Assembly (NCBI GenBank): GCA_973895155.1
Contig: OZ316894.1
Span: 9,523,440-9,587,439, forward strand
Length of the DNA: 64,000 bases
Direction: 5' to 3'
Origin: Marsupella aquatica
Lineage: Eukaryota; Plantae; Marchantiophyta
Positions 1 to 53,369 of this stretch are shown piece after piece (positions within the stretch are counted from its first letter, which is position 1; each line of letters begins with the position of its first letter). Position numbers and translations under genes: made by a program. Below the pieces are notes generated by a model. The model was not told the DNA's origin. It worked only from the letters and a program-made list of their open reading frames with translations, and made no database searches.

Positions 1-3000
1 GTCAGCCACATTACAAGGGACCTCCTCCCCCCCAACACTTGGACTGAAGTGGTGAGTGTTGGACAGAGGTAAGTGCACCTGGTCTGGATGCCATGTAGCA
101 GCACCATGGAGTGGTAGGGCTGGAACTCCTGATGCTAGATGAATGTACATCTGAAAAAGGATGCAAGTGACCAAAAGCCAAGTGAGAGCATTAAGATCCA
201 TTACCCTGCCAAGTAAAGCATTCCTGGCCAGCCTGGTGATTTTGGTGTGACCTGTAGTACTGGGTTGGAAGCCCATAGCCCGTTCTCTCTCCTCATGACT
301 AGGTTCATCCCATGTACCGGTAGAATGTCGATAAACCAGGCCAGGACCATCAGTGCCCTGAAAATCATGTGCACCTGGAAAGGACACAAATATAGGCCAA
401 GCAGCACGGGGCTGTCCAATGGTATTGGCTGGATACCAAGGTGCTGGCTCTTGCCGTGTAACTGGTTGGCAAGAACTGTCAGGATCCAAAATCTGGTCCA
501 CTGTGAGGTTAGTGTCCCTGGATGTGTGGTGAAGAGCTAACTCCAACAAGGAAGGTGGTGCAAGGTTAGTCCAAAAGTTACGAAGACGATGTGCATAAGA
601 ACCACAGTGCACTGCATCAATGAGAAGGGGTGGTCCCAAGTAGTGTTGGAGCACACTGAAATCCTCTTTGACCTGTGGACGCTGGTCAAACTGAGATGGA
701 GTATTCTCAATGATATAACCAACAGCAGGATAAAGGGATTGAGCCCAGGTGAGAATCTGAACCAATGCTGTGAAAAGGCCAGAACAAGAATCATGCAGTC
801 CAGCACCATGACCAGCAGCTGAAAACCCTTGGCATTCCCAACCAGCTATGATCAAATCAAGGGAGCCAAGAAGGGTTAAGTGCCGGTGCTAGACAAGCTG
901 GATATCTGGAGGAAAGAAAGAAAATGCAGACTTCCATGCACTATGTGGAAACTGCTGAGGAAATCGCTCTGAAAATTCCAGCAGACGGGATTCAGCCACT
1001 TGCCTTGCACCTGGATCAATATCCACATAGATGTAGTGCTTCACCACCATGCCAGACTGTAGGAGAGCTTCCAGGCCTATAGAAATGCCACCAAAAAGCT
1101 CAAGCAATGTAAGGCCATCCGGAGCAGGAGTCCATATAACTGGTGCGCTCAAGATTGGGGCTATTGGCTGTCCATTGTGCTGCCCAAGGTCTTCAAACTT
1201 GTGCAATGCAGCCACCAAAGGTCCATGGGCTGCTTGGAGCCGTTGTACCACCTTTGGTTGATGATCCACGTTGCTGGAAAGTGCTGCTATACATGCAGTA
1301 GCATGTGCAGCAGCCACCTCATCGTCATCCTCCTCAATCCAATCTTGCAATGGGTGGTTGACATAGGTAGCTGTGTGCACTGCTTTCAACACACATTGGT
1401 GAGCCATAGGTGTATGGGCACCATGCAAATCAAGTGGAATGTAGCCCAAGTGTGAGCCATCAGTATGCCAATCAACTCTGTAGTATGCATGCTCATGCCA
1501 GTTGTCAATGGTAAAACCTGGTGGGAACAAAGCCTCCTGGCCAATGAGCACATCATACGTAGTGGCATTAGTAACCAAACATCTGACTGGGAAATGCAGT
1601 TCTTGATCTGTACCTCCATTAAAAGTGAGAGTGAGTAAAGTAGACCTCTCACCCAGCACATCCTCCACAGTGCCACTAGCAGTCCGAATGTGCCACTTGG
1701 ATTGCTGTAAATGATCAGTCAACAGTCCCATCTTCTTGGCAAACTGAATGCCCAATATCACTGGTTGAGCACCTATGTCTAGCATGACCACCTGAGGAGT
1801 GTGACCCTCCAACTTGACCACTGAATTCCTGTTGTCAACAATGGCAATGGTGGTGGAAACTGAAGTCCTGTCACTAGGCACCACTCTCGGCAAATGATGA
1901 GGTGCCTTGTGAAGGGAGTTAGTGTCCACGGTCTTTCCACTCAACAACATAGCCAGGAAAGATGGAGCAGCATGACCAGAATCAAGTGTAGCTCTGGTCA
2001 CACAATCAGCAGCAATCGGTACTGGGGCAGCCAAACCAGTGGAAACATGTAAAGGAGAAGAAGAAGGTCCAGTATGTACATGAGATTGGACCTCAAAAAC
2101 TGGTGTCACAGGGGCTGATGAAGAATGCAGTGAGCCCTCTAGCGCTCTGATGACAGCTCTAGCATCCAGCTGTAAATCATGACAACTGAAAAGTGGAGTT
2201 GTAAGAATCCTTTGTGCCATACCGGAGGTGAAATGCTCAAGCAGCTCAAGAGAAACAACTCCCTGTGAAATGTCAGCAGCACCTGGTGGTGGAATGGATG
2301 TAGCTGCAGCTCCCTCCCCCCTCGCCAACAAGGTGCGCTCTTCAGCAAGTGTGAGTGGCTGAAAAGATTGGGGCATGACAGCCCGAGCTCCCCTGGCTCT
2401 AGTCATAGGACCGGCAGCAAGACCATCAGCCTGTACAATGCAGCGTGTGAGAGCAATACGGGGGGCAGCATTGGCGTGCTGGGAAGCAAAATAAGAAGGG
2501 CAGAAGGAATCTGAAAATTCTGCTATAAGGCCAGGCTGTGTAGCAGAGGACAGCACACACTCACCCATATGAGCATCAAAGGGCAAGCCATAGAAAGAGC
2601 GGGGTAGAGGTGCTAAACTGTCAGTGGTGCCTAGGCCAGGGATGGGTTGCACGTGACCAGCCGGTTGAGAAGGACCAGTAGAGGCAGTTGACTTGCCTTT
2701 GATGTTGGCAAGTTGGGCACGTAGGGACTCAACCTCATGAGTCAGAGACTAGAGTTGAGTTGCGTGTGCGTTGTGAGCCTCCTTCTGAGCTGGTTGCTTT
2801 TGTTGCTACTTGGGCAATTTGTTAGCACCGGGTGCTTTGCCACTGGAAGGAGGAGCAACTGAGGCAATAGGAGCCCTCCTAGCTGGTGGGGGAGTGGAAG
2901 CAGGAGCAGGATGAGGGGTTTGCTGTCGTAGTTGCTTCCTCTCTGGGAATTGGGCAAAACAAACTGCCTCCAAGTGGCCCACTCTCCCACAAAAATCACA

Positions 3001-36200: not shown

Positions 36201-38393
36201 CAAAGGCGCAGACAAAAATTAAGGAAGAAATCCATCGATACGGTAATGTGGAGTCTTGCAACTAGATTTGGATTTCTGGAGTGACTGAAAAGGAGGTGGG
36301 GTCCCGAGGGACGCGAGCTTGAGCCGGCTTTGGAACTTGGGAAGGAAGGGAATAGGAATGAGGGCATTGAGGGGGCGTTGGACGGAAGCAACGGCTAGAA
36401 AGGTCAGCAACTCGGCATTTCACACGGCGTGACATGAGATTCGTAGATTCCGACAGAGATGGACCGTATGAGAGAGTTGAAATTTTCCACTGACAGTGGA
36501 GGGACAGTCAGTTCGTGAGTTTCGAGAGAATGAATGTTGAACGAATGATCAATGCCGTTATTGTTGGTGCGACTTCGATGGAAAGACTGCTGCTGCTGCT
36601 GCTGGCACTGGCACAGGCACAGCCCCGGAGTGAGCAAGAGAGGAGCGAGGAGGAGGCAGGCTGTACAGCGCTGCTGGGGCGAGGATCGAGGAGACTCGCC
36701 CTCGTCTGAACATTCAAAATTCGCGGAGCGCGATTAGGGTGCTTATTACTTTCCGCCCTTCCTCACCACCCCAGCGCAACACATGAATATTTGATTTCGT
36801 AGCTATTCAAGTTCGTGTGGTGACAGGTCAGTGGAGGCTCCCTTTGGCTTCATGATCTCGATGGAATTAACGGTCCCTCTTCAAATCTGTGGTCGTGTCT
36901 TGCCTACGAAATGTGCAGATGAGTGGCTTTCGAGATATGGATTTCGTCAGTCTTAGGCAATAGAATGGATGTGCAGGATTTGTTCTCTGATGTGAGTTGT
37001 TCTCTGATGTGAGTTCGTTTGAAACCGTAGTCGAGTACGTCAATGTCAAAACTCTAGTCGAAACTTCGCTGAAGGTGGACGAGAGGTCCGAGCTGATCTA
37101 CTTTAGTTAGATCTCGGCATTTCACTCTCGATTTGTAGACTTTCGCACATGTAGGACGACTGACAGTTCATTGTCTGTTTGACATTGCTCTAAGTTTGTT
37201 GGAGGTCTTATCCTAGAGTTTAGTCGACCTTGCTTTGTGGATTTCTGTCGCACGCCTTCGATGCCAGGTCTCCGTCGGTGACAAGTACGTCTTAATTGCA
37301 CTTAGCTGACATTTGAATAGAATGTCAGTCTCGTTTCAGCGAAGGCTCTCAAACAGCGCTCACACATAACCTATTGATTGGCAAATACTAGACTTTTTAA
37401 AACTCACCATTCAACGGGTTTCACTTCCCTTCGCTCTCAGCATCTCACTGTCTTTTGGGGTCATAGCTGTTTTCCCTTCCTTAAAGGTGCACGTAGCCCC
37501 TTTGTGCTGTCATTTGTCTTCAGATATGGACTGTTAAGTTTTTCTTGAAGAAACTAAACGTCCCTGCCGAATTTCACCATTGTAGTCCTGTTTTTCGTAT
37601 TCACCCGAGGGGCCGATGCTTCTGTTGGGTTGAAGACTAACAGGTCCAGCGGCTTGAATGGATAGCTTAAGGGAGGCACTCGAGGTTAGCTGATCTGAAA
37701 GGAGCTACTCATTCTTATGCATCTTGTCCGAGTCAATCATTGCGCAATCATCTACGCATTTCCTTCCTCTAGGCGTCCTTCCTAGACCACTGGCTGGACT
37801 TGGTTTCAATATTCAATTGCCCATCCGGGGCTTTTGGGTTAGAAAAATAATCTCCCTATTCTGTCAGATTTACAGAGCACTTGGAGACCCCCGGCGAACA
37901 TGGTGCATTTACGAAATTCCGAGAATAGATATAGGGATTAGGCTCTGGGAAGAAGAATTGTAAGCTTCTGCTCATGTAGTTTTTGCAATAAATGGTTCTG
38001 TCTGTGGGTCTTTGTGACAGGTGATTGCTGCAAGTTTCACCAGTGGCATGGACAAAGGAAGGAACGAAGAGGGATGGTATCTCCTGTGGATCTGTTCAAT
38101 TTGACAGAGACTTGGTAGTGCCAACGGGAATTTCCTCTGCTCTCAGGGAGAAACGGTTTTTGTATTCTATCTAATCGAGCTGACTTCAGATCATGGGAAT
38201 GGGAATCGCCGCATGGATAGTGTTGATGTCGCAATACCAGAAGTGGAAGTTAGGGGCGGTGGTGGACATTTATTAGAATCAACTGGACGGAGGTAGCGTC
38301 TTCGTTATCATCCCACTTGTCATCGTCGCTGTCCTCCTGAAGTTGAAGAGCACAGATTTCAGCTTCCCAGAATTGAAAATTCCCCATTTTCAG

Positions 38394-40632
38394 ATGCCGA
38401 CAGGAATTCGAATTAGCAGTCCAGGGCGAGAACAACGTGCTAAATTTCCAGGGGCGGGAGGAGGAGGAGGAATAGGAGAAGCGTTTTCATGGTTCCCTTC
38501 CGCCCCTGGCTCATTGACATCTTCGCTCAAAATCACGCCTCTCACCCCTGCCATTGGGGCCACAGTGGAAGGCTTGTCTCTCGCGGACAGCTTGTCCCCG
38601 AAAAATCGCGATCAGATCAGGGCAGCATTGCTCAAGTTTCAGGTGCTCGCCCTTGCTCAATTGCAATCTTCAGCTATTGGATTCTTTTAGAGCCTGCATC
38701 AAAAGCTCGTTCGTATGTTTCCTTGATACTTATCCTCATTCGAACAGGTATCCACCAATAAGATCCTCTGAAGACACTCATGTGCAATTTGGGTATCTTA
38801 GTTGAGCTCTTTGTTTGGGCCTAAGCCATTTTGATTCGCTCCGAGTCGGCGGTCTATTCAACAGGTTGAAAGGAAAACAGAGTGTGATTAAAGCATTGGG
38901 ATTGGAGTATCTAGATGTCGTGCACTTCTAGGCTGGGATCAATGTGCAAGCCGGATACCGTCGGCCTGTTTCTGGACCGGGCTTCATCGACTCAGCAGGC
39001 CAGATGACGGAGTAGATGTCAAGATATCACGGATGCGGGATGCGGAATTTGCTGTAGTCTCCCTGAGGCTGCCCCGCTGACCTGTCAAATTCGTTCTCTT
39101 TAGGCAACATAGGACTCCAAATGCAATGTCGACTGATTTCTCCGGCGAAAGTGTGAACTAAATCAGCTGAAAATGCAACTGGAAACGTATCCAGTTCACT
39201 TCCTTCGGGGAACTGTTTCAAAGACTAAAGACTGTACCTGACCTTCGTATTAGCATAATGCAATAGGCCTGATGAAATTGATTCTCTTGAATGGTCCTAC
39301 TTTTCTTCCACAGGTGCTGATCTTCCGAAAGCAGCCGCTGACCCCTTATCAGCAGCGAAAATTTGCTAGATATTTCGGCGAGTTACATATCCACCCGATC
39401 TACCCTAACTTGGGCCCGGAGCTGCCGGAGATCACGGTGCTCAAATTCGATGCCGAAAATTCTCCCGATCAAGCGGATCACAATTGGCATACTGACGTTA
39501 CATTTATAGACAACCCTCCCTTAGGCTCGATACTGTCAGCCAAAGTGCTGCCTCCGTTGGGAGGAGATACGTTGTGGGCAAGCGGGATTGCAGCGTACGA
39601 GGGTCTCTCGAGGCCTATGCAAACATTGTTGCTCGGGCTGACTGCGGAGCACTCGATCATGAAGGCATTCCCGGCTCCGAGGTATCAAGAGAAAGCCAGC
39701 TGGGACGCTTACGAAAGATGGGAGGAGGCTATCAAAGAAAATCCCCCGGTCGTCCATCCCGTTGTCAGAACGCATCCTGAGAGCGGTCGGAAGGTAACGA
39801 ACTCTACTCCATCATCCACCTCGTCGACCTACTATGTCCAACTCCACTTCAGAAGATTGACATTTGGCAAATCAATTCAGACGCATTAAAATCATGAATG
39901 CTGAGTAGTGGTGAAGAATTCTCGTTCAGGTTCATTGAACTCGTAATTTGGGAATAGTGATGAAGAATTTTCCTTTGGGATCATTTGGGCTCAAGTGCGC
40001 AGTCCTGGATCTCCCAACATTTGTGTATGACTACTGCCAGCTGAGTTTTCTTTAGGGCTGCTGAAGTGGTATTTCACCGATGTGGGTTCACACTTCTGTA
40101 GGGATTGTACCGACAACAAGCATAGTTCTCGAACGTTTCGTGAACAGGATTAAATTTCTGTGGGTGGCAATGTAGCATTGTACCCTAGGATTGCTCTCCA
40201 GGTCTCAAACGAAAAGACTCCTTGTCAGGTTGACACAAGACCAGTCCTAGTTCGCATGTTGAACACTTCGGGCGCACACGTTTTAGATGGAGATGGAGAT
40301 GGTCAGAATAATTGATCAAGTTCCCCAAAAGTTTACAGTTTGCGTTCCATCAGGGAGATTGATTGTTGGTGGGATTGTCTGTGCAGGCACTCTTTGTGAA
40401 CAGGGGATTCACAGTACGCATTATTGGGTTGAAGCCCTCGGAGAGTGATGCGTTGCTCAACTTTCTGTATGAGCACACGACGAAACCAGAGTTCTTCCTG
40501 CGCTGGAAGTGGCAAAAGGACGATGTTGCCTTTTGGGACAACCGAGTTACACAGCACTATGCCACCGCCGATTACATGCCTTACACCCGAGTTATGTACC
40601 GCGCCACTGTTATGGGCGACAGGCCTTATTGA
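38394..40632 (+). CDS. tauD: Alpha-ketoglutarate-dependent taurine/sulfonate dioxygenase (TauD/TfdA family), 3 exons
   Basis: Exons 38394(?)-38642, 39314-39793 and 40387-40632 with phase-0 GT-AG introns. Motifs [32 protein letters not shown] (HxD), [37 protein letters not shown] (distal His), RVMYRAT. Start codon uncertain. Confidence 0.93.
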
Positions 40633-42662: not shown

Positions 42663-43710
42663 TTACAAGCCGCTGGACGGTGCTGGGGCTGGTTCCTCAG
42701 CAGCGTCCAAGTTCGCATAAAGCTCCTGCTCCTTACGTCGGGGAACCGGCATGTCCCAGCTTTGGTGTTGGTGGTTTGCGCACATCAGTTTCAAACTTCT
42801 ACCTGCAAGTCACCATAACACCATATTAAGTCCGAGCTCCAGCTCCAGCTCCAGCATAGCTTTGTTAATTCTAAGACCTTGTAATTGGTAGGACGGTTGC
42901 CAATCTTTTCTGAATGGGGAATCTGCTGGAGACTCTTGTTACACACGATTACTTAGGAGCTAGCGCTTGAAATAGATGGGCCAACCCAAACCTTTTCGCT
43001 CTAAAATTCCTATAAAACACAAGAGCTAAAATTTATGTAAGAGACGCAACTCATAACCTCGAGCAAGCTAGACTTCCTGGCAAAGATTAATTGCAAGTAT
43101 GGTCATTCAATGGCGAGTTATGCTCTACCTTCTCCGGCAGCCAAGTTGGTGTAGAGGTCCATAAGGTTGGGGCAGTTCACTTGACACTCCGGGGAGCACA
43201 GCTTCGCGGTGAAGACCTCCGACTCTAGCGCGTCAGTGGAAAGACCCACAGTCTCTTTCGCAACACCGCAGGCGTTTGCGCATTGTTGAGTCTCGATGTA
43301 CTCCACGGGACTTCCCTCGCTCACCAAGATGTCTGATGTCTGCACGACAATACAGTAAGGGCGACCGAGGCGACTCTTGATTAATTCCGATCGCTTTGAT
43401 TTTCCTTTGAATCTCCTGTATCTCTGAGACAACTTCACGGTAGCAGTTCGTTAACTTTCTCGAGAACGTACAGGTCAAATGAAAGACATACCTGGCACAC
43501 GTGCCAATTCATGTCGCCAGAAAGTGTCTCGAGGACGCATCTCTGTCCCGCGGAGTCTACAGCGAAAGCACATTCATCCGTTGGCAGCATGCTACAGAAG
43601 AGTCGTAACGGCTCTGAGCTGTGAGCCATGGCCACATGCACCAGCGCCGTCAGCAGAACCTGTACCGAGACGAGAGCTAGGAGCATCGCTATGGTCTGCG
43701 GAAGCGCCAT
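42663..43710 (-). CDS. PAR1 (photoassimilate-responsive)-family secreted Cys-rich protein, 3 exons
   Basis: Exons 43710-43492 (signal peptide, CSMLPTDECAFAVDSAGQRCVLE), 43339-43129 (YIETQQCANACGV..VGLSTDAL..KLCSPECQVNCPNLMDLYTNLAAGEG) and 42802-42663; characteristic PAR1 cysteine pattern. Confidence 0.9.
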
Positions 43711-44679
43711 CTGAAATAAAATTTTCTCTCCCTCGCTTATGCGACGATAAAACACGTACTACTCCAGACTCTTAGTAATAGGAAGGCGAAATCTTTCTAA
43801 AACAGTTGCAGCGATTCCGATCAAAGTACAGCCGAGATTGATACATACACTCCCAACTCAACAGTGAGACTCTCTGAACTCAGCTCAACCTTACCCTGAA
43901 ACTCGAGAGATTTACGTTCACTTCATATATGTGTGAGTGCTATGATTTCGAGAGTAACAACCCGTATTTTTAAGTCTTCACCTGACTATTGACTGTGCTT
44001 AGAAATTAGTTGCGAACTAACCCCAGACCAGCTCATGGAGTGAGTGCACAGTCGTGCTGATCTGATTGAGTGTTGTCTTCTCCTCTCCGCCTGGAAGTAG
44101 ACCTCAGAAAGAGGTGTGGCAAATGAATAGAACACTGACAGATTGGTGGGTATGGAAATAATCTGGATTCGCCACCGTCTGGTCTCGGTCGACGAGTAGG
44201 TGCGGACGTGATGAGAATTATTTTGAAGAAGGCGAATTCGAGAGACCGACTTCCACAGCAAGCTTCCAATGATTGGAAAAGTACTCTTACTTAGATTTTA
44301 CACTTGATAGAAAGAAAGTTTTCCTTACATCACAAATGGAGCGAGGATGAGTCGAGGGCTACAGCAGTAGCCTCGCTTTGCTTTCGGTCTCATGCACACT
44401 GAGATATTATAGAAATGGAAATGATGACGATTCAAGGGTCGATGTCTCGAAGCAGAATTCGATCAGCATGATTGTGCACCGTCTCAAATTCAGGAGTAGT
44501 AGCGCCACTGAGCGATTGTCTTGCACGGCTTTGACTACACAAGAGCACACCACGATCATTTCTTTGTGTAGGTGCTGATTCTCTTGTAAGAACGGTTTAG
44601 TGGTTGGTGCACCGAAGTTGTAATTCCCATCATACCACTGCGGTCAGCTCGATGCCTCGATGGTTTGGTGCAGCCTAGA

Positions 44680-50400: not shown

Positions 50401-52103
50401 TTTTCTTAATCCATTTTTGTCTTGTAATTGATATCATCTTAGGGCAGCATCCAAGAAAATTATGAGATTGAACATAAGAGGTTATAGAGATTGCCACAAG
50501 ATATTCCAATGAAATTAGGGTGTTTTAAAAGCATGTGTATATCGACATGTGTATTACTTGTGCTCACTTTAGTGATTGAAACTTGGAAGAAATGAGTGGT
50601 GAAGCCTACAATAATTACATGGTTTGGGAGCTACACGGGCCGGGATTTACTGTTACCTGAGTTAGTTAAATGCACAATTTATACTCTAATGGAAATCAGA
50701 AGTATGAAATTGTATAAATAATTATACACAAGGCTCTTACAAAATCGATGAATTAGGGCCTCGTTTTGATATGTGTACAAGACATCAACAAATGGTTTGA
50801 AGGGGCGTGTCTCTTATCAAAAGACACCATGGATACACAATTGGATTCTTTTTATAAAAATTATTCAAGGAAACCAGTAAACTTGATCTTAGACAGTTAC
50901 TTGAACACATTGGATTGTATTGATTTCAATCTGTTTGTTGCCCAGTCTGCAATTACTTAGTCCAAAATCTCTAAACATATATACTGCCAAAGTGTTACTG
51001 ACATCATTGGTGGGGCCAACACAACTTCCCTCTCTAGAGATTCCCAACTCCAAGTTCAAACAATGCAGAATGAATGTCCAATTTGACTTACTAAGAAATT
51101 TTGCCCACTAGAATTGCAAGCATTTCATAGTTTGATATGCACAATTCCACATCTCAGGTCTACCTCACTTTAACTATTACACTTACCTCACCCTAGATGT
51201 CTAGTCTCATATCTTTCATCACCAAAAGTTCACTGCTACTTCTCACAGACAGAAAACAATTTGCAGCTTAGCGCACATTGGAGGAATTCTATTTGAAGTA
51301 ATCATATCTATTCACAAGATCATATCTCTATTTATGAGAGGTTAGTGGGGTCGGCTTACTGAAACTGCTGGTAATGTCGAGTGTATTGGCCCAATGTGAA
51401 AATCCTATCCTCTGCTTATATCTAGTTGAACGGGAATTTAAACGGTTGCACTTCAAATGTAGTACTTCAGGGCCAAAGGAGCCCACAACTCAAGCTGATA
51501 GAACCTGTACATTCACTTTTTCCTTTGACTGGCTTAGCACGATAATGCTAGTCACTCATAAATTCAAAGTACTGAAAAAATAACAATTGTATGTAAACAG
51601 AAGGACTGGTACGTTAAGAATTAAGGATTGATCTAAATGAGCGAATGAGCTTTGCTTCATGTCTGGCTTGTGTTAGGCACTGTGTTCTGAACTCAACTTC
51701 AGTCCTAATGGTGTCTACATATTAGCATGGTAAGTTAGATTTTGCTATGGTTGTTTTTAGAAATTATGACTGTGAATGGGAACATTTGGGCATGAATCTT
51801 TTTGTCACAAATCAGGATGACTTTGAAGTCTGAAGCATACCTCTACCCTAGATTCAGAGGTAGAGTTGTTCCTCAATTTCATGTAGTCTTTTGACTCCAA
51901 GAGCAGTTGCCAGGACCTCATCACTAAAGATATTGACAAAACCCATATATGTCAATAGTTGATTGTTATATGCATATTCCATTCTTTGCTACCTCTTTCA
52001 CATAAGTAAAAGTGATGAACTGAACTTTTAGTGGACTCACAGAAAGCTGTTTCACAACTCTCAACGGCAGACTCTGCCAGCAGCATTATCATAGAGAATT
52101 CAG

Positions 52104-53369
52104 ATGTCTTTGAGGGGTGTCCAATTTTGTACCCAAACAAAACTAGGGGGCAGGAGTAGTAATACATTGACTACAATCAGAAATGATCTAGTCAATGGAG
52201 ACAAGGAGTTTGAGGATGGGAGTAGGATGATAACACGTCATGGACACCTTGCGGGTTATAATTGTAGTGCTAGCCAAAGGAAAGATTTGGTGCAAGAGGA
52301 GATGGATCCATCCCTGTGGGGATCTCTCACCGAAGACATTGAGGATCGCATCCTTGCATGGTTACCATTTGACGCCTTTGCAAAGATGCGCACTGTCTGC
52401 AAGAGATGGAATGACATTCTAAGATCGTCAACTTTTCTCCAAGTGTATAGAGCAATTCCTGCTCCAGCCCACCCCTGCTTCCTCATGTTTGATGCAAAGG
52501 ACTGGACTATGTGCTGGTTGTTCAATCCATCCATCACTCGTTGGCACTCTTTCCCTTTTGACTTCGAGTGCAGTGAATCCAAATTCCCATGTGCTGCAGC
52601 AGGGGGCCTCATGTGTTTTTGTGGTGCAACCTCATACCCTAACATGTACGTCTGCAATCCATTAACTAGGCAGTGGAGAGAAATACCTCCCAGGAAAGAG
52701 AAGCGATTCCCCAATATGGTTGGAATGGTGGTCAATGAGTCCTCAAAAACCTTCAAGCTGGTTGTGGCTGGAGATTATCACGGTGTGCATGTCACATCCA
52801 CTGAAGTTTTTGACTCTGAGACCAACTCATGGGTGACTACAGAAGGAGATCAGATACCAATTGTTCGTCTAACTCCTAGAAACTCATCTTGCCTTGGATG
52901 TATTTTCTGGCTAACTTGTGATCCATTTGGTTTGATTGCTTTCAATTTGGAACAAGCAGAGTGGACCACACTCCATGCTCAAATGCCTGCTTTTCTCATA
53001 TCCCCTCACCTTGTGGGATGCACAAATCGTTTGCTCATGGTAGGTGGGGTGAAGAAACAGATTGCACCAAAGAGCATTAGGATTTGGGAGTTGGACATGA
53101 CGTCAATGCAGTGGGATGAGGTGGCAAGCATGCCACCAACTCTTTGTAGCAGATTTTTGAAAGACTCACTCACTGGGGATTTTATGTGCATAGGTCAAAA
53201 TGACCTCATTTGCTTTACAAGCTACAAATGCTCTCAAGCTTTGATGTATGATGTTTTGAAGAAGGTTTGGCAATGGTTGCCTGCCTACCCCTTTCTGTCT
53301 GTGCTTGACATCTACCGCTTGCATATTGGATTACCCTTCACCCCTCATTGGGACATTGGGGTCTTCTAA
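52104..53369 (+). CDS. F-box protein with kelch-like/FBA beta-propeller (intronless)
   Basis: F-box LWGSLTEDIEDRILAWLPFDAFAKMRTVCKRWN followed by AAAGGLMCF, YVCNPLTRQWREIP, TEVFDSETNSW and W-x-EVASMP repeats. The true start may be a downstream Met (e.g. 52302). Confidence 0.92.
   Translation: MSLRGVQFCTQTKLGGRSSNTLTTIRNDLVNGDKEFEDGSRMITRHGHLAGYNCSASQRKDLVQEEMDPSLWGSLTEDIEDRILAWLPFDAFAKMRTVCKRWNDILRSSTFLQVYRAIPAPAHPCFLMFDAKDWTMCWLFNPSITRWHSFPFDFECSESKFPCAAAGGLMCFCGATSYPNMYVCNPLTRQWREIPPRKEKRFPNMVGMVVNESSKTFKLVVAGDYHGVHVTSTEVFDSETNSWVTTEGDQIPIVRLTPRNSSCLGCIFWLTCDPFGLIAFNLEQAEWTTLHAQMPAFLISPHLVGCTNRLLMVGGVKKQIAPKSIRIWELDMTSMQWDEVASMPPTLCSRFLKDSLTGDFMCIGQNDLICFTSYKCSQALMYDVLKKVWQWLPAYPFLSVLDIYRLHIGLPFTPHWDIGVF

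Follow-up and report, generated by a model that had tools for sequence, protein, structure and literature searches.

The locus described here raises two questions: how a gene resembling a bacterial taurine dioxygenase (TauD) came to lie in the genome of a liverwort, and whether its product still acts on taurine. Plants are generally held to rely on microbes for unlocking the sulfur of sulfonates; with a bacterial-type TauD, liverworts, mosses and a clubmoss would have a sulfonate-sulfur route of their own. The window, meaning the whole stretch of DNA that was analysed, is 64,000 nucleotides long and comes from Marsupella aquatica (contig OZ316894.1). The original prediction for it was of a TauD gene transferred horizontally from bacteria and domesticated with spliceosomal introns. 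The parts of the gene, all on the plus strand, are as follows:

38394..38642, plus strand: coding exon 1, 249 nt, with a 44-residue Gly/Ser/Pro-rich extension and then the start of the TauD domain
38643..39313, plus strand: intron 1, GT-AG, phase 0, 671 nt
39314..39793, plus strand: coding exon 2, 480 nt, with H110, Y113, D135, the inserted loop, H142-T-D144, A201 and F202
39794..40386, plus strand: intron 2, GT-AG, phase 0, 593 nt
40387..40632, plus strand: coding exon 3, 246 nt including the TGA stop, with F251, H300, R311 and R315

The two phase-0 GT-AG introns were borne out, as the length of each exon is divisible by three, both introns start with GT and end with CAG, and the joined frame of 324 aa is free of stops. 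PF02668 (Pfam) was matched on all three exons. Placed on NF007104, the NCBIfam model for taurine dioxygenase, they cover positions 3-43, 45-198 and 199-279, almost its whole length, with separate scores of 29, 213 and 138 bits. Exon 2 alone matched E. coli TauD (1gqw) with an E-value of 2e-53 in phmmer, and every motif that had been quoted for a motif-by-motif resemblance to proteobacterial TauD was present. Calypogeia fissa P0002 was the best match: its identity across the 324 aa is about 90% (89.5-90.1%), and it shares the start and the residues at the exon junctions, so that the host is likely a leafy liverwort and not an angiosperm; the N-terminal extension and the start of exon 1 are the same in Calypogeia P0002 and P0122. 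Chitinimonas TauD is 66% identical and Escherichia TauD 56%. By its predicted structure, this is an intact three-exon TauD-type plant gene.

The catalytic centre of TauD can be followed residue by residue in the predicted protein, where the iron triad H142/D144/H300 and the 2-oxoglutarate ligand R311 align to H99/D101/H255 and R266. Positions T126, H70, Y73, D94, F104, F159, F206 and R270 of TauD are kept as well. His70 and Arg270 bind the sulfonate in TauD (passages of PMC9304159 and PMC12951627), and correspond to H110 and R315 here. Three further residues, D94, N95 and S158, position the amine of taurine in E. coli TauD, in which N95D and S158A lower taurine turnover (passages of PMC9304159), and only D94 is kept in the liverwort protein. 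Two residues are inserted after its equivalent, an insertion found in none of the 210 non-plant sequences (these include unnamed ones, taken as bacterial from their tree position). N95, kept in 209 of the 210, is D138 or Q136 here depending on gap placement, and S158, kept in 206, is A201. The insertion makes the alignment ambiguous, so that the amide of Gln136 could stand in for Asn95. These pocket changes are common to all six sequences of this liverwort subfamily; Calypogeia P0007, from a second liverwort subfamily, retains the full bacterial taurine pocket, and among the copies of moss and clubmoss, positions 97, 158 and 206 are variable.

The claim that the triad and the pocket His/Tyr are intact therefore stands for H142/D144/H300 and H110/Y113 but has to be qualified, as the pocket is only partly intact, with the Asn95 and Ser158 positions changed. 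The proposed TauD role on sulfonates is in keeping with the conserved sulfonate-binding His/Arg; the case for taurine itself is weakened by the two amine-binding residues that are not those of TauD. Judged on its residues, the gene is classed as TauD-derived and not as a proven taurine dioxygenase, and its product likely oxidises a sulfonate or a sulfate ester, with its preference shifted to a substrate that carries a different tail. An AlphaFold model of the ortholog P0002, made with a 108-sequence alignment, had a mean pLDDT of 83 (residues 1-45 below 50) and matched E. coli TauD 1gy9 with Z 42.3 and an rmsd of 0.9 Å over 276 residues, compared with Z 34.5 for AtsK.

Our preferred reading, to which we give a probability of about 55%, is that the protein is a TauD-type Fe/2-oxoglutarate dioxygenase whose family likely reached early land plants in a single transfer out of a beta- or gamma-proteobacterium. 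On this reading the enzyme is predicted to free the sulfur of a small organosulfur compound, likely not taurine. By analogy with TauD chemistry, Fe(II) on H142/D144/H300 would react with O2 and the 2-oxoglutarate bound by R311 to form Fe(IV)=O, which would hydroxylate the carbon adjoining a sulfonate or sulfate ester gripped by H110/R315, and the hydroxylated product would collapse to sulfite (or sulfate) and an aldehyde. After the transfer, this liverwort subfamily would have gained its introns, and its substrate-tail pocket would have been remodelled by the two-residue insertion and by the changes of Asn95 to Asp or Gln and of Ser158 to Ala, with the second subfamily (Calypogeia P0007) appearing to have kept the full taurine pocket. 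The enzyme would likely serve to regain the sulfur of sulfonates or sulfate esters that bryophytes produce themselves or encounter. Sulfoquinovose was also considered as a substrate. It was rejected because SqoD binds its sulfonate without the His/Arg pair (passages of PMC12951627) and the window protein keeps both residues.

A true taurine dioxygenase working under sulfur starvation, as originally proposed, with pocket changes that compensate each other, is possible, though we consider it doubtful. The equivalents of H70, Y73, D94, F104, F159, F206 and R270 are all kept, P0002 scores 430 bits on NF007104 against an equivalog cut-off of 313, Gln136 may replace Asn95, Ala at 158 is also found in 2 of the 210 non-plant sequences, and taurine has been reported from Sphagnum (PMC8941135). 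However, two of the three amine-positioning residues differ, the loop insertion is absent from all 210 of those sequences, and the stem of this liverwort subfamily is long, at 0.68 changes per site. The second copy of Calypogeia, with its full taurine pocket, would also free this copy to diverge.

The origin of the family was followed in several trees. The 24 plant-clade sequences formed one group in a FastTree analysis of 240 sequences (support 95). With a mixture model in IQ-TREE, the plant clade, made up of liverwort, moss (Ceratodon) and clubmoss (Diphasiastrum) copies, received 100/99 in a tree of 38 sequences, which leaves out 21 long or redundant ones, and 71/95 in a tree of 59 sequences with long outgroups, for which the bootstrap had not settled. 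Of 148 added representatives (from an unfiltered HMMER search clustered at 50%, so that close relatives are hidden), none joined the plant clade (support 97), and the clade was nested in canonical beta/gamma-proteobacterial TauD (96). In an LG+G4 quick tree, joining the plants with Chitinimonas, or with a metagenomic clade that has one member named Steroidobacteraceae, gave a p-AU of 0.48 each, so that the AU test picks no donor. Chitinimonas, in which 2 of 2 TauD loci checked lie in tauABCD operons, was considered as the donor and is not established, its rival being equal.

As the clade is common to liverworts, mosses and a clubmoss, the transfer was likely ancient, with the gene inherited within plants since. 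The horizontal transfer that had been proposed is thus upheld as to its bacterial source and refined as to its date, which was likely early in land-plant history and not recent. The branching inside the clade is less simple. Moss and clubmoss copies fall together (96/95 in the 38-sequence tree), apart from the two liverwort subfamilies, a grouping which we take not to follow the species tree, and Calypogeia P0007 is without the one-residue insertion common to the other plant copies. Neither observation sits easily with one simple transfer, and both would be explained by ancient duplications followed by losses, or by movement between plants.

Several transfers from one unsampled bacterial lineage, or spread between plants, in place of one transfer into the land-plant ancestor, would be compatible with any function, and we regard this as unlikely. 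The distribution is patchy, with only Calypogeia, Ceratodon and Diphasiastrum named among the matches listed, the moss copies group with those of the clubmoss, and PMC12454661 deals with the repeated acquisition of one microbial gene. On the other hand, the plant clade is free of bacterial sequences in all six trees, and the one-residue insertion, which none of the 210 non-plant sequences has, unites the copies of liverwort A with those of moss and clubmoss. A single entry is still the history that we prefer.

The distribution rests on two word-filtered searches. The first was a sequence search, with the best 120 of 2049 matches listed, mostly without names. In the second, a seven-sequence plant profile put ten plant-clade proteins first among the best 120 of 7425 matches (8000 candidates scored); six of them were named (Calypogeia, Ceratodon and Diphasiastrum, five having been in the query) and four were without a name. 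Every named protein among the other 110 matches listed was bacterial, with Chitinimonas first. Marchantia, Physcomitrium, Selaginella, ferns, seed plants and algae were not named among the matches listed of either search, which is suggestive of the absence of the family from the usual model plants. Among longer proteins (12 matches from 223 candidates) there was no plant or algal name; three Phytophthora proteins and four TauD-permease fusions were found. The latter (P0234, P0235, P0237 and P0238) are 487-527 aa long and join an ABC permease domain (PF00528) to TauD, apparently by fusion. ESM Atlas searched with P0002 returned only bacterial TauD clusters. One metagenome match (L081), the sole match to a degenerate plant-clade motif, was judged to be due to chance, its surroundings being without a TauD frame.

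On two contigs, 120 and 235 kb long, moss-like members were found as uninterrupted frames of the full 280 aa. Moss copies therefore likely lack introns, and it was likely in liverworts that these were gained. Ceratodon (P0004/P0005) and Diphasiastrum (P0010/P0136) have two copies each with neighbouring locus tags, likely in tandem, and within each pair the pockets differ at 97, 158 or 206 (P0136 also at 73).

Recruitment to specialised metabolism, in which the enzyme would hydroxylate a substrate without sulfur, appears improbable. TauD-fold oxidases of non-sulfur substrates exist (RdpA/AAD-1, PlaO1 and ScoE), and the plant copies are duplicated, with pockets that vary at 97, 158 and 206. Nevertheless, no full-length plant sequence has lost the anion-binding pair His70/Arg270, and the ortholog model gives Z 42 to TauD against at most 36 for RdpA/AAD-1, PlaO1 and ScoE.

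Vertical inheritance, from green algae or an older eukaryotic ancestor, is highly improbable. A Chlamydomonas gene is annotated as TAUD1 (part of PMC8374494), and the TauD Pfam domain is spread across algae and plants (part of PMC13069868). However, beyond the ten plant-clade proteins the named matches listed are all bacterial, and the plant clade lies within proteobacteria, to the exclusion of oomycete TauDs: a single clade of the plants and two Phytophthora TauDs was rejected (p-AU 3e-5), these two being the sole named non-plant eukaryotes in the trees, which were built without the Chlamydomonas protein. No broad algal representation, of the kind that would make this a vertically inherited green-lineage clade, was found, as no alga is named among the matches listed.

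Read contigs and neighbouring genes bear on whether the gene resides in the plant. Four public sequencing runs with DNA-type contigs cover the region. In one of them (X1), which may be the source of this DNA, an 18-kb contig covers 35500-42000 with zero differences at a single depth, and runs from a second study covered 30 of 30 bins. A second X1 contig, a paralog at depth 22 vs 20, matches only 39312-39798 and 40383-40621. Its similarity restarts at the intron-1 acceptor (39312), and at intron 2 it carries 301 unrelated letters in place of 584 nt of the window. The intron-1 donor lies at the same codon in paralog contigs (loose ends 38625 and 38632). Changed codons in exon 3 of the paralog were synonymous in 13 of 21 cases (among 23 of 28 differences listed), as were 4 of 4 listed exon-2 differences in organism B, and metagenome frames P0123 and P0124 stop just past the exon-2 boundary, as unspliced genomic exons would. 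This liverwort subfamily has duplicated. Further copies of it, which have diverged, were seen: one in X1, and in X3/X4 as many as three contigs with a variant exon 1, of which two carry an in-frame 3-nt insertion.

A Pfam scan of all 106 stop-free window frames of at least 85 aa named two plant neighbours:

43121-43758, minus strand: PAR1-family gene in two pieces (Pfam)
52095-53366, plus strand: Kelch-repeat gene (Pfam)

The location among plant genes was thus confirmed, with the PAR1 gene (PF06521, E 9e-26) 2.5 kb downstream of TauD and the Kelch-repeat gene at 52 kb. At the left end of the window (1-2748, minus strand) there are retroelement-like frames with an aspartyl protease domain (E 4e-5), next to a frame with a weak C-5 DNA methylase match (E 1e-4). 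For 47 short frames on the minus strand at 21-36 kb, Pfam named no domain, and ESM Atlas gave nothing above 0.82 for an upstream minus-strand frame.

Residence in the plant genome, which had been argued against contamination, holds because the introns lie at sites common to paralogs, the neighbours are plant genes and relatives occur in other plants. Bacterial contamination or a dead pseudogene, as the 66% identity of the core to bacterial TauD and a coding GC of 53% above an intron GC of 44-46% might suggest, is hardly credible against two spliceosomal-type introns shared with paralogs, the single-depth contig, the full coverage in the second study and an open frame whose listed exon-2 differences in organism B are all synonymous.

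The sequence in front of the ATG may hold a further part of the gene:

38277..38393, plus strand: stretch that may extend the TauD frame upstream, stop-free in that frame and with a hydrophobic part as a candidate membrane anchor

If translated, these 39 open codons would give a hydrophobic segment of 19 residues with a mean hydropathy of 2.5. In one paralog, with 10 of its 15-18 differences listed, 6 of 9 changed codons were synonymous, where the null expectation averages 2.1 (P=0.008), and it is this excess that hints at a membrane anchor. The hint is weakened by the absence of a start codon within the stretch, by an in-frame TAG at 38274 without a listed difference in organism B, and by another paralog that is out of frame by 5 nt here, and the stretch may instead be 5' UTR or intron. 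Within it, 35 nt (38291-38325), starting from a possible splice donor, are conserved in a paralog at a nearly equal distance to the coding region (258 vs 253 nt), possibly as a regulatory or 5' UTR splice element. Further upstream, an ATG follows a good acceptor (38189) and opens a 27-codon frame in the TauD phase that ends with the TAG at 38274 (38193-38276), a candidate upstream ORF.

Taken further, and as a speculation that we think quite unlikely in full, early land plants could have gained a bacterial sulfonate-cleaving enzyme, an organic-sulfur route which seed plants appear to lack, and the liverwort subfamily could have been retooled, possibly as a membrane-anchored form, for a bulkier cationic substrate such as choline-O-sulfate, reclaiming sulfur from compounds traded by bryophytes and microbes.

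No description of a bacterial-type TauD in land plants was found in the full-text literature, a scope outside which the largest bryophyte transfer tables lie. A term search for taurine or TauD gave no hit in the main texts of PMC12513842, PMC12448838, PMC11228847 and PMC3493653, nor in the supplements searched, namely one of three files of PMC12513842 and those of PMC11906373 apart from one file. The family may already be listed among the 1,809 transferred families of PMC12513842 or in Ma et al. 2022. Bryophytes have commonly received genes from bacteria, which makes the finding less surprising; events of this kind are known, and the family and its pocket divergence seem undescribed. The clade was possibly overlooked because it is apparently absent, among the matches listed, from the usual model plants, and its Pfam domain is common to native proteins. 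To summarise, the sequence evidence points to a genuine TauD gene of bacterial type that has been domesticated in the plant; its substrate pocket is altered, and the land-plant clade to which it belongs is small and likely ancient.

Among known systems, E. coli TauD (1gy9, 1os7; NF007104) is alike in its 56% identity, in the fold predicted from the ortholog model, and in the triad and H70/Y73/D94/F159/F206/R266/R270, all kept in the liverwort protein. It is unlike it in that the liverwort gene is eukaryotic, with two introns and no tauABC operon, and that its protein has a 44-aa N-terminal extension, pocket-loop insertions of one and two residues, Asp or Gln for N95 and Ala for S158. Chitinimonas TauD, encoded in tauABCD operons, has the highest bacterial identity among the matches listed (66%), and its place as sister to the plants ties with that of the Steroidobacteraceae-containing metagenomic clade. 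The AtsK and Rv3406 alkylsulfate dioxygenases, and the yeast sulfonate dioxygenases, presumably of the Jlp1 type, have to be considered as well. They share the chemistry and act on non-taurine sulfur substrates (passages of PMC12951627), although AtsK and Rv3406 are only about 40% identical to the liverwort protein and form a separate family branch. Native plant PF02668 proteins, which we take to be clavaminate-synthase-like, have the same Pfam domain, but none is among the close matches listed. All genomes surveyed carry PF02668, 300 of 300 from tracheophytes and 115 of 115 from bryophytes (part of PMC13069868), and domain-level surveys would therefore mask the bacterial-type TauD clade. Lastly, the bryophyte genes from microbes described by Dong et al. 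2025 (part of PMC12513842), with 1,809 horizontally acquired families and 90 events in the land-plant ancestor, represent the same kind of event as the one that we propose for this gene.
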